Origin: Escherichia coli
GTDB lineage: Bacteria; Pseudomonadota; Gammaproteobacteria; Enterobacterales; Enterobacteriaceae
DNA length: 64,000 nt
Reading direction: 5' to 3' (one strand)
Assembly: GCF_044324785.1 (NCBI RefSeq)
Contig: NZ_CP172127.1
This document shows positions 11,523-39,513 of this stretch, piece after piece. Position 1 is the first letter of the stretch; every line of letters starts with the position of its first letter. A model generated the notes under the pieces. The model was not told the DNA's origin. It was given only the letters and a program-made list of their open reading frames with translations, and did not search any database. The position numbers and the translations under genes are program-made.

Positions 11523-11538
11523 AGTTTTACTCAGAGAT

Positions 11539-11644
11539 AAAAAAAACCCGGCATAGGGGACCGGGAAGAGGATAGTCTGCCGTCTCCAGACTAATAAACC
11601 GTTATAACACTCCCTGTTGGCACGGGAAACTTTGTGCTCTCAGT
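11539..11644 (-). ncRNA. gadY: GadY small RNA, antisense to the gadX 3' end
   Basis: Minus-strand sequence actgagagcacaaagtttcccgtgccaacaggg...cccggttttttt matches recalled GadY and ends in a hairpin plus U-run; ends approximate. Confidence 0.7.
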
Positions 11645-11890
11645 AAGTTAAATATAACTTTTACTGGAAATAAGATCAGCCATTTTTTTATAAACATAAG
11701 CTATACGCTGTGCGAAAATATATTCGTGCTGCATTTACTTATTATCAATTAACTGTTATGCAAAACTACTTTGTGGATAAATTTTGGTCCTACCAAATCT
11801 GGCAGTTTTTGCGCTAAGAAACAGTCTGGCATCATTTCATTAGTATACTGAAATTGAAATAATCGCAGTAATGAAATATAAGGGATAGTC

Positions 11891-17277: not shown

Positions 17278-17615
17278 TTTAGTCCCTGAAAATTCTTGAG
17301 AAATAACGGTTCTTTAAATTGCGCGCGAGGAGAGATATGAGGGATTTACAGACCAGCGGCATAGTGGGGTTGTCAGCCAGTAAGGTGGGATACAGGCATA
17401 GTGATCGACATGGTGAGGTCAACGACAAAAAAAATGTTGCCGTTCTGCCAACAGTTCCTGCCAGCATTCGGGCAACGAAGGGTTCTACTGGTGGATACAC
17501 ATACCAGGGGAATAAAGTCGTTTTAACCTCTCCTTTAGTAATCACCGGGGGTAATGAAATCAGCATCTGCATCCCTCGTCATGCCAGCCATCAATTTCAG
17601 TTGCTTATGTCCTGA

Positions 17616-36927: not shown

Positions 36928-37281
36928 TTAACTGCAAATGTTCTTACTGTCTTCGGAACAATTTTGTCGAGCCAGGTTGCGGACAATCACCTGAACCTTT
37001 TCCTGTTCGCATCGCCAGGCCTGCTCAATAATTTTCGCGGCCCATGATGGAATATGCGGTGATAAGCGGTAATGAACCCACTTACCCTGCTTGCGATCCA
37101 GCAATAGCCCACTTTCACGCAGCAATGCCAGGTGGCGGGATATCTTGGGCTGCGACTGATCGAGGGCAGTACAGAGATCGCAGACGCATAATTCTCCCAG
37201 CTCGCTGAGCAGTAAAACGATGCCCAGACGGGTTTCATCAGCAAGAATTTTGAACAGTTGGATGGGTAACAGAAATGACAT
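36928..37281 (-). CDS. arsR: Arsenic-responsive repressor ArsR (117 aa)
   Basis: ArsR HTH with metalloid-binding ELCVCDLC motif. Confidence 0.95.
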   Translation of the reverse strand: MSFLLPIQLFKILADETRLGIVLLLSELGELCVCDLCTALDQSQPKISRHLALLRESGLLLDRKQGKWVHYRLSPHIPSWAAKIIEQAWRCEQEKVQVIVRNLARQNCSEDSKNICS

Positions 37282-37433
37282 ATTGCGCTCCTGATTGTTG
37301 CAGGTAGTGTCTCTCTTCGAAGCGGATAAGTCAAAAACATATATGGTTTAACGAATGTGTATGTGCAGAGGAAGGTAATAGGTGTGAATTTTGAGTTGGC
37401 TATTCATTTGAAAGGAGGTCTGAATCAGGACGT

Positions 37434-37515
37434 AAAAAAACCGACTTTGCGTCGGTTTTTTACTTCCCAGCCCTGAGTTGGTGGCTCTGGCTGGAGTGAG
37501 AGAGCTCTTATCTAA
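37434..37515 (-). ncRNA. agrA: agr-type antisense sRNA, copy 1 (agrA-like)
   Basis: Minus-strand promoter (-35 TTGCAA, 17-bp spacer, -10 TAGTAT) and hairpin plus U-run terminator; about 30 nt of the RNA is complementary to the dinQ 5' region; ends approximate. Confidence 0.55.
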
Positions 37516-37667
37516 CAGCTCAATACTATTAGCCAGTGGCTAACATTGCAAGAATTAGCGATTTCTTCAGCTGGCGAAGGGACAGTTTGCTATACATGTT
37601 GGTGAAAGAGGATTTATATACTTTCATCGGGTCGCTGCCGTACCAAGCCTTGTCCGAATCCGGACGT

Positions 37668-37750
37668 AAAAAAACCGACTTCGCGTCGGTTTTTTACTTT
37701 CCAGCCCTGAGTTGGTGGCTCTGGTTGGAGTGAGAATGCCATCATCTAAC
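37668..37750 (-). ncRNA. agrB: agr-type antisense sRNA, copy 2 (agrB-like)
   Basis: Tandem duplicate of copy 1 with its own promoter (-35 TTGCAA, -10 TAGCAT) and identical hairpin terminator; ends approximate. Confidence 0.55.
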
Positions 37751-37814
37751 GCATCAATGCTAATACCATACTGAAACTATTGCAAGGACGTGCTGGTTTT
37801 ATAACCTGCATGTA

Positions 37815-37830
37815 CTGTATGATTATCCAG
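37815..37830 (+). promoter_or_regulatory. LexA (SOS) box upstream of dinQ
   Basis: ctgtatgattatccag fits CTG-N10-CAG with a TA-rich core. Confidence 0.6.
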
Positions 37831-38023
37831 TTAGCTCTGAGGCATTTTCACTCTGGTAATGCGCATAAACGCTTTCAAAGTCCTGGTCAGAAGTACGGGT
37901 GGTGCCGTTAACTGATGCTCTGGCCGGAGTGAGAGAGTTCTTATCTAACAATGAGACATGCGCCGTGACAGGCAGTGGATGAGTAAGCGGATGCATTCTC
38001 ACTCCATCGCATGGAGAAAACGG

Positions 38024-38107
38024 GTGATTGATAAAGCAATCATCGTTCTTGGGGCGTTAATTGCGCTGCTGGAACTGATCCGCTTTCTGCTTCAGCTTCT
38101 GAACTGA
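38024..38107 (+). CDS. dinQ: Type I toxin DinQ (27-aa single-TM peptide, GTG start)
   Basis: Translation VIDKAIIVLGALIALLELIRFLLQLLN* matches recalled DinQ; an in-frame ATG at 37991 would give a 38-aa variant. Confidence 0.75.
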   Translation: MIDKAIIVLGALIALLELIRFLLQLLN

Positions 38108-38125
38108 TAGCGGAAACGTAACTAA

Positions 38126-38155
38126 GGGCAAAGAGCACACCACTCTTTGCCCTTT
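38126..38155. terminator. Bidirectional hairpin terminator between dinQ and gor
   Basis: Stem gggcaaagag / ctctttgccc. Confidence 0.55.
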
Positions 38156-38160
38156 AACAT

Positions 38161-39513
38161 TTAACGCATGGTCACGAACTCTTCTGCCGCCGTCGGGTGA
38201 ATGGCGACGGTATTGTCGAAGTCTTTTTTGGTTGCGCCCATCTTCAGCGCCACCGCGAAGCCCTGCAACATTTCATCCATACCAAAACCAATGCCGTGAA
38301 TTCCGACAATCTTCTCTTCCGGTCCAACGCATACCAGTTTCATGCGGCACGGCTGGCGGTGAGTGGTGACTGCGGTATACATCGCGGTGAAAGAGGATTT
38401 ATACACTTTCACCTGATCGTCGCCGTACTGCTCGCGCGCCTGCGGTTCCGTTAAACCAACAGTCCCAATCGGCGGATGGCTGAAGACCACGGTCGGAATG
38501 TTGCTGTAATCCAGATGCTCATCCGGCTTGTTATTAAACAGGCGTTCAGAGAGACGGCGACCCGCTGCAACTGCTACCGGTGTCAGTTCCACTGCCCCCG
38601 TGTTATCGCCCACCGCGTAAATACCTTCAACGTTGGTATTTTGATATTTATCGACGACGATATAGCCTTTTTCGTTAGTTTTAACGCCAGCGGCTTCCAG
38701 GTTGATGTTGTCATTGGCAGGCTCGCGACCAATCGCCCAAATCAGGCAATCTACCGTTTCACTGCGACCATCTTCCAGCTCCAGCGTCAGGCTGCCGTCG
38801 GCATTTTTCACCACCGCTTTCGGGATGGCGTTGGTGTGCAGCTGCGGGCCTTCGGCGTTCATCACTTCGACCAGCGTTTCAGAGATCATCGGGTCGAAGC
38901 TGCGCAGCGGCGCATGTTTACGCACAAACAGATGCGTTTTCGCGCCGAGGCCGTTAATCACGCCCGCCAGTTCAACGGCGATGTAACCCGCGCCAACAAC
39001 CGCTACGCGCTCTGGCAGCGCCGGCAGGGCGAAGAATCCATCAGAATCAATACCGTATTCCACGCCCGGAATATCCGGGTGGCTCGGACGACCGCCGGTG
39101 GCGATCAGAATATGATCGGCCGTGATGGTTTCGCCGTTTACCTCCAGCGTTTTGGCATCAACGAAGCGGGCAAAGCCTTTGATTACATCAACGTTATTTT
39201 TACCGAGCACGTTTTCATAGGAAGTATGAATACGGTCGATATAGGCGATACGGCTGGCGATCAACGTTTCCCAGTTGAATTTATTGATAGTGGTATCGAA
39301 ACCATAATCCGGACCGTACATGTGGATCGCTTCACGGATTTGCGCCGCGTGCCACATCACTTTTTTCGGCACGCAGCCGACGTTCACGCAGGTGCCGCCC
39401 AGTTCTTTGGCTTCAATCAGCGCGCATTTCTGACCGTACATAGCCGCGCGGTTGATGGAGGCGATACCGCCGCTGCCGCCGCCGATGGCGATGTAATCAT
39501 AGTGTTTAGTCAT
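38161..39513 (-). CDS. gor: Glutathione reductase Gor (450 aa)
   Basis: FAD-binding GGGSGG motif and redox-active CVNVGC disulfide motif. Confidence 0.95.

Follow-up and report, generated by a model that had tools for sequence, protein, structure and literature searches.

The short region between arsR and gor on the Escherichia coli chromosome raises the question of whether two similar antisense RNA genes lying next to one toxin gene both control it, or whether only one of them does so. We analysed this region in a 64,000-nucleotide stretch of E. coli DNA (the window), in which positions 37282-38160 (879 bp) form the arsR-gor intergenic region. Both flanking genes, arsR (36928-37281) and gor (38161-39513), lie on the minus strand and were recognized from the list of open reading frames (ORFs) and from the RefSeq annotation of E. 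coli strain N3, which is 100% identical to the window over 37282-38160.

Identity and setting of the dinQ-agrAB locus

An initial annotation, made from the sequence, had placed the toxin gene dinQ and the antisense RNA genes agrA and agrB in this interval. The assignment holds, as it agrees with synteny, with an alignment to the arsR-gor region of K-12 MG1655 (95% identity) and with RefSeq, NCBIfam and Rfam. The comparison with K-12 coordinates proposed at that stage was carried out and gave the same flanks, order and strands; the order annotated in K-12 is gor, dinQ (b4613), agrA (b4712), agrB (b4713) and arsR, and the window is syntenic with it. The agr genes are divergent from dinQ and all three lie between arsR and gor, as expected of a dinQ-agrAB locus. 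The presence of a 27-aa hydrophobic ORF together with an AgrB RNA that has extended complementarity to the dinQ leader gives the locus the structure of a type I toxin-antitoxin system. We put at roughly 93% the probability that this chromosomal locus of E. coli is dinQ-agrAB, a type I toxin-antitoxin system, configured much as in K-12.

This locus is already known and was re-identified here rather than newly found, since Rfam family RF02891, NCBIfam NF041472, the RefSeq annotation and two experimental papers cover it. The K-12 system was described by Weel-Sneve et al. 2013 and Kristiansen et al. 2016. The evidence available for K-12 dinQ includes Northern blots, primer extension, toxicity and membrane localization (PMC3567139), as well as SHAPE, in vitro translation and RNase III cleavage (PMC5066626). 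The earlier remark that the system is not visible among the ORFs is true of the bare ORF list only; RefSeq, Rfam and NCBIfam all contain it.

Sequence related to the interval was found in 5422 of 5426 complete E. coli genomes. The median of two places per genome in this search suggested a second dinQ-agr locus, a possibility that we rejected. The figure is probably due instead to the query agrA unit cross-matching the agrB unit of the subject genome through an exactly shared word of at least 28 nt. In strain N3, the two agr units share 24 nt only, and a single place was found.

The dinQ gene, its promoter and its leader

The predicted 27-aa DinQ frame was recovered on the plus strand at 38024-38107; it starts with GTG and encodes a single-pass membrane toxin, VIDKAIIVLGALIALLELIRFLLQLLN. 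The ORF matches NCBIfam NF041472 (toxin_DinQ, equivalog) over the whole 22-position profile with 54 bits (cut-off 30, E = 1.4e-14), and RefSeq calls the identical ORF of strain N3 ‘damage-inducible type I toxin DinQ’ (WP_001295215.1). A Pfam scan of the 49-aa ORF matched zero families. There is one synonymous difference between the dinQ genes of the window and K-12, and the peptides are identical. DinQ toxicity and its repression by AgrB would accordingly be expected in the window strain by analogy with the K-12 allele, with which it shares both peptide and target.

The LexA box announced ahead of dinQ was also found. It is a single box, TACTGTATGATTATCCAGTT (37813-37832, plus strand), in which the only CTG-N10-CAG of the dinQ promoter region is located and which agrees with the consensus TACTG(TA)5CAGTA in 15 of its 20 positions. 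The likely dinQ -10 element (TATGAT, 37818-37823) and the inferred +1 at 37830 both fall within it, as expected of an operator of the SOS regulon; the box is identical in K-12. LexA binding and UV induction of dinQ have been published for K-12, with HI values of 4.83 for the main operator and 13.82 for a second operator near the first (PMC3567139). The relaxed pattern CTG-N10-CTG is matched by TGCTGGTTTTATAACCTGCA (37791-37810, plus strand), a candidate second, weak LexA operator, and from its sequence we infer that these bases may be the second operator of that publication. No -35 element of dinQ was recognizable, either by reading the sequence or with a generic promoter scan.

Downstream of dinQ, an inverted repeat with 12-nt arms at 38124-38154 was matched by the terminator scan; serving both convergent genes, it corresponds to the terminator common to dinQ and gor described previously (PMC3567139). 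It lies beyond the stretch delimited by the initial annotation (37418-38107). Relative to K-12, this terminator has a compensatory A-T to T-A base-pair swap and one loop change, and the stem is kept. The dinQ leader is overlapped by a 59-aa minus-strand ORF (37823-38002) annotated as ‘hypothetical protein’ in some RefSeq E. coli genomes (for example, loci L010, L013 and L017), which is probably a spurious call.

The published numbering of the dinQ mRNA (PMC5066626) could be transferred to the window. Position 37830 was accepted as +1 because every landmark of that publication then falls on the expected base, giving a primary transcript of ~330 nt (37830-38158, plus strand). In this numbering, sequence 1 (U16-C28) is at 37845-37857, the +44 processing site at 37873, the AgrB target (G88-A119) at 37917-37948, sequence 2 (G94-G106) at 37923-37935, sequence 3 (U167-U178) at 37996-38007 and sequence 4 at 38011-38016, the last including the Shine-Dalgarno (SD) sequence GGAG (G184-G187, 38013-38016). 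All four switch sequences, for which the mutually exclusive pairings 1:2, 2:3 and 3:4 have been published, are present with one change, C28U in sequence 1, which leaves a wobble pair. When the +1 mRNA is folded, the minimum-energy structure (z = -4.7) contains the 1:2 duplex, as published, together with the SD hairpin (3:4). The minimum-energy structure of the +44 form has an open SD, but the pairing that opens it differs from the published 2:3 duplex, and the centroid keeps the SD hairpin. Thermodynamic modelling thus appears to reproduce the dinQ switch only partly. What the present analysis established directly comprises the identity of every element, the arithmetic of pairing and the predicted fold of the +1 mRNA.

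The two agr units and their pairing with the leader

Both agr genes are 84 nt long, lie on the minus strand and are full-length matches to the covariance model of the AgrB antisense RNA (RF02891; gathering score 40), with internal stem-loop and terminator hairpin both covered. They are named here by position. The arsR-proximal gene, agrB (37432-37515), occupies the slot of K-12 b4713 and scores 104.5 bits; its paralogue agrA (37666-37749) occupies the dinQ-proximal slot of K-12 agrA and scores 99.7 bits. In the predicted fold of the agr RNAs, the 5' segment is single-stranded and is followed by an internal stem-loop and by an 11-bp hairpin with A7/T7 flanks; the z-score is -4.2 for agrB. Other Rfam matches in the window are the GadY sRNA (11534-11647, 147 bits), the ES205 sRNA (17427-17498, 105 bits) and the shuA/chuA 5' UTR thermoregulator (27170-27201, 60 bits).

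The initial annotation had given each minus-strand unit its own promoter and a hairpin terminator, and both predictions agree with our reading of the sequence. The predicted agrB promoter (37523-37551, minus strand) has a -35 element TTGCAA (37546-37551), a 17-nt spacer and a -10 element TAGTAT (37523-37528), 7 nt from the first RNA base (37515), which is model position 1 of RF02891. The agrA promoter (37757-37785, minus strand) is arranged alike, with TTGCAA (37780-37785), a 17-nt spacer, TAGCAT (37757-37762) and 7 nt to RNA base 1. The A7/T7-flanked 11-bp terminator hairpins are at 37435-37461 for agrB and 37669-37695 for agrA, both on the minus strand. A generic promoter and terminator scan reported no agr promoter, no agr terminator and no dinQ promoter. 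Its thresholds explain this result, which we consequently do not count against the agr and dinQ elements: the scan demanded 9 of 12 hexamer matches (the agr promoters have 8 of 12) and a T-run outside the stem, so that the agr terminators, in which the T-run forms part of the stem, were missed. Support for the agr promoters and terminators comes from the Rfam model, from folding and from published mapping, in which consensus-like -10 and -35 elements and a mapped agr start were reported (PMC3567139).

The overall architecture of the initial annotation is real, with agrA clearly diverged in the pairing segment, but the units are not head-to-tail repeats of 140 bp. A repeat search found two copies of a 114-nt core with 87% identity and a start-to-start distance of 234 bp; identity drops to 78% over 148 nt, and ~90 nt of non-repeated spacer separate the units. 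The two RNAs are identical at 76 of 84 positions, distributed as 50 of 52 in the structured part and 26 of 32 in the 5' pairing segment. A motif said to recur three times proved to have two good copies, in agrB and in the dinQ leader. The degenerate 30-mer given for it has two exact matches in the 64-kb window (37487-37516 and 37920-37949), and no third site was found there even at three mismatches; shuffled sequence gave 0 matches. The agrA copy has 6 mismatches to the pattern over 30 positions. In the corresponding 34-nt repeat family, with the member at 37484 as reference, the agrA member at 37718 is 79% and the leader member at 37917 is 94% identical.

The spacer between the units contains a gor-like relic (37591-37643) in the same orientation as gor, 83% identical over 53 nt to gor positions 38376-38428 (E = 1e-9 within the window). 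It sits between the agrB promoter and the agrA terminator, and the short minus-strand peptide encoded there resembles a segment of Gor. Its register does not fit a simple tandem duplication including gor, the distance from the motif being 107 nt for the relic and 459 nt for the real gor segment. This gor-like spacer differs strongly from that of K-12 and is 4 nt longer in the window, and the K-12 relic is the more diverged.

The two RNAs differ in how well they pair with the dinQ leader. The 5' 32 nt of AgrB (37484-37515) form 30 Watson-Crick pairs and one G·U pair out of 32; over 33 nt there are 31 Watson-Crick pairs, one G·U and one mismatch, at -59.6 kcal/mol. For AgrA, the figures are 24 Watson-Crick and four G·U pairs over 32 nt, and 25 Watson-Crick pairs, four G·U and four mismatches over 33 nt, at -42.2 kcal/mol. 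The proposal that both RNAs pair with the leader therefore stands for AgrB, which is near-perfect, and does not extend to AgrA as an equivalent partner. AgrA is non-cognate for the dinQ leader of the window strain, and AgrB is its only near-perfect partner.

The same asymmetry is known from K-12, in which the 33-nt segment duplexes have energies of -59.6 (AgrB) and -44.1 kcal/mol (AgrA). K-12 AgrB binds +44 dinQ, closes the SD hairpin and blocks translation, and K-12 AgrA does not; it left SHAPE reactivity at the SD unchanged and +44 translation uninhibited (PMC5066626). Sensitivity to UV was observed for the agrB mutant only, deletion of agrA having no UV phenotype, and agrA has been called ‘partly degenerated’ and non-functional (PMC3567139). 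The window and K-12 have in common the DinQ peptide, the LexA box, the 33-nt AgrB target and the arsR-proximal position of the cognate copy. They differ in agrB by A11G and A50G and in the core of agrA, which is ATGCCATC in the window and TAGCCATC in K-12. Within the pairing elements, the substitutions relative to K-12 are agrB A11G and dinQ C28U, and both produce G·U wobbles (in the case of A11G, G·U instead of A-U with the leader).

It could be argued that both antisense RNAs work as redundant antitoxins in the window strain, as the initial description implied. Promoters, stem-loops and terminators are intact in both agr genes, deletion of agrA in K-12 raises full-length dinQ RNA about 3-fold (PMC3567139), and RNAduplex on the full RNAs gives AgrA an extended partial complementarity to the leader of -56 kcal/mol, against -75 kcal/mol for AgrB. 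However, the four mismatches and four wobbles of AgrA in the 33-nt target leave it close in energy to the K-12 AgrA, which lacks the SHAPE effect, the inhibition of +44 translation and the UV phenotype. We consider redundancy improbable.

A separate observation concerns a 14-nt perfect inverted repeat (37726-37739 and 37993-38006), by which the 5' segment of AgrA contains GCAUUCUCACUCCA, identical to a stretch of dinQ mRNA covering sequence 3. This stretch is located just upstream of the SD; K-12 AgrA shares about 9-10 nt of it only.

With AgrB as the cognate antitoxin, the locus would be expected to operate according to the published K-12 model (PMC3567139, PMC5066626). LexA, whose box overlaps the -10 and +1, would thereby keep the dinQ promoter off until DNA damage relieves the repression. 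The primary ~330-nt mRNA would be inert for translation, with sequences 1 and 2 paired and the SD GGAG locked in the 3:4 hairpin. Loss of the first 43 nt would free sequence 2 to pair with sequence 3 in the +44 form, opening the SD for translation of DinQ, a 27-aa inner-membrane peptide predicted to depolarize the membrane and lower ATP. The constitutive 84-nt AgrB would act in trans, as it is encoded about 430 bp upstream of its target on the opposite strand; pairing of its 5' 32 nt with leader nt 88-119 would re-close the SD hairpin and direct RNase III cleavage. AgrA would be expressed and, in the window strain, be too mismatched to repress like AgrB. Transcription, processing, toxicity and repression in this strain are thus expected by analogy with the K-12 experiments.

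The tisB-istR-1 system is not known to be related to dinQ-agrAB in sequence, lies at another genomic site and has a single antitoxin RNA; its mechanism involves a standby-ribosome site, unlike that of dinQ-agrAB. The two systems are alike in having a LexA-controlled toxin gene with an inert primary mRNA activated by 5' processing, a divergently encoded antisense RNA that acts in trans on the leader and brings about its cleavage by RNase III, and a small membrane-depolarizing peptide (PMC3567139).

A second alternative, that the window locus is a decayed, non-functional remnant, draws on what has apparently happened in some other E. coli. The left flank of the leader is missing from about 958 genomes (5422 - 4464), about 18%, and we put the share of complete E. 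coli genomes without an intact leader at roughly 13-18%. In one example, strain 9 (positions 505-640 of locus L005), a 199-bp deletion spans precisely the interval separating the agr motif from the leader motif, which are in identical register. The terminator and stem-loop of the agr unit are thereby joined to the dinQ leader in its 3' part; both promoters, that of agr and that of dinQ, are lost together with the LexA box, and RefSeq still annotates dinQ. The same direct repeats can thus delete the whole module in one step. In the window, however, promoters, LexA box, switch sequences, SD, ORF and terminators are all intact and near their K-12 form, and the sole substitutions in pairing elements preserve pairing as wobbles, which makes decay very unlikely.

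UTI89, ATCC 11775, APEC 16-1068 and strain 9 lack arsR and arsB and have arsC immediately next to agr/dinQ.

Allele variation and the cognate slot across Escherichia

Variation at the pairing segment was studied in 24 E. coli loci, the window included, which all have an intact leader and were not chosen at random. The repeat positions compared were 37484-37516, 37718-37750 and 37917-37949 in the window and their counterparts in loci L001, L003-L025, L026, L031, L035, L047 and L049. The 8-nt core of the target (dinQ nt ~106-113) has at least five alleles in E. coli, GAGTTCTT, ATGCCATT, ATACCATT, TAGTCGTC and TTGCCCAC. In all 24 E. coli loci, the leader core pairs with one resident agr copy with at most two non-pairs of 33, and the same is true of the six complete loci out of six from a scan of species representatives. 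The second agr copy, where present, usually has 3-6 non-pairs of 33.

Which copy is cognate depends on the leader allele. The arsR-proximal copy is cognate for GAGTTCTT and TTGCCCAC leaders (10 loci, window included). The dinQ-proximal ‘agrA’ slot is cognate for ATGCCATT, ATACCATT and TAGTCGTC leaders in every sampled locus (14 loci, 5 of them single-copy), and also in the species representatives E. albertii, E. whittamii and Escherichia sp. E1V33. A matrix of cross-energies separates cognate (-55 to -60 kcal/mol) from non-cognate combinations (-39 to -51 kcal/mol), with O157-type loci weaker at -48 kcal/mol. With the commonest leader allele not of the K-12 type, the AgrA core of the window, ATGCCATC, pairs almost perfectly (-55 kcal/mol).

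Allele frequencies were counted with 56-nt allele-specific queries against complete E. coli genomes. An intact dinQ leader was found in 4464 genomes, with 1755 exact matches to GAGTTCTT, 1916 exact matches to ATGCCATT plus 313 near-matches, and 419 to TAGTCGTC. The TTGCCCAC allele is rare, and its count is an upper bound only, since the band of at least 99% identity is inflated by partial matches at 68% coverage. Together, the ATGCCATT, ATACCATT and TAGTCGTC classes account for about 59% of the 4464 genomes.

The view in the literature that AgrA is degenerate and non-functional derives from K-12 only. The comparison made here suggests that the agrA slot supplies the working antitoxin in most E. 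coli lineages and in the sister species, and that target and antitoxin exchange alleles in concert. We slightly favour the view that AgrA is not a decayed duplicate but occupies the ancestral antitoxin slot, and that the locus is a specificity-switching system. If the AgrA slot is ancestral, the K-12/N3 arrangement with an arsR-proximal cognate copy would be derived. Co-conversion among the three direct repeats is the probable cause of the core swaps, judging from a modest sample of sequences; gene conversion is favoured over independent compensatory mutations because the changes common to leader and sRNA are clustered and multi-base. If true, this would be a compact natural example of a trans-acting antisense pair changing specificity without losing control of the toxin.

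We found no paper in the literature describing lineage-specific agr/dinQ swapping, and T1TAdb notes only that, where there are two candidate antisense RNAs, it takes the more stable one. That the ‘spare’ copy in the agrA slot usually matches the toxin mRNA across Escherichia is the sole potentially new element of this work.

The remaining alternative, that the repeats are leftovers of a segmental duplication devoid of RNA function and complementary to dinQ through shared ancestry, is scarcely credible: the weak alignment of the dinQ leader with the whole agr unit, the gor-like relic in the spacer and an agr copy number varying from 1 to 3 indicate that the region did arise by duplication, but the sRNA body outside the 8-nt core hardly varies among Escherichia species and the core changes along with the leader, a pattern not to be expected of neutral decay, and transcripts and phenotypes have been published for K-12 (PMC3567139).

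One agr unit is present in PapRG-06-3, APEC 16-1068, UTI89 and ATCC 11775, two in K-12 and N3, and three in OkiPb01706, where they comprise two agrB-type units and one agrA-type unit.

Related genes, named dql, are found on chromosomes and plasmids of Enterobacteriaceae; they resemble dinQ in having a related 5' UTR with four switch sequences and a related peptide (PMC5066626). The window copy differs from them in being the true dinQ at the arsR-gor site and not a dql paralogue. A motif scan of the genome collection gave 33 loci, of which about 20 outside Enterobacteriaceae were set aside, since each is a lone match of the kind that chance can produce with 16 specified bases. A single GGAGTGAGA-N8-ATCTAAC motif occurs in Citrobacter amalonaticus, Serratia sp., Pantoea and another Enterobacteriaceae genome (locus handles L043, L046, L055 and L056); in Serratia, a dinQ-like ORF follows the motif after about 110 nt. 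These single-motif matches may be dql-type loci.
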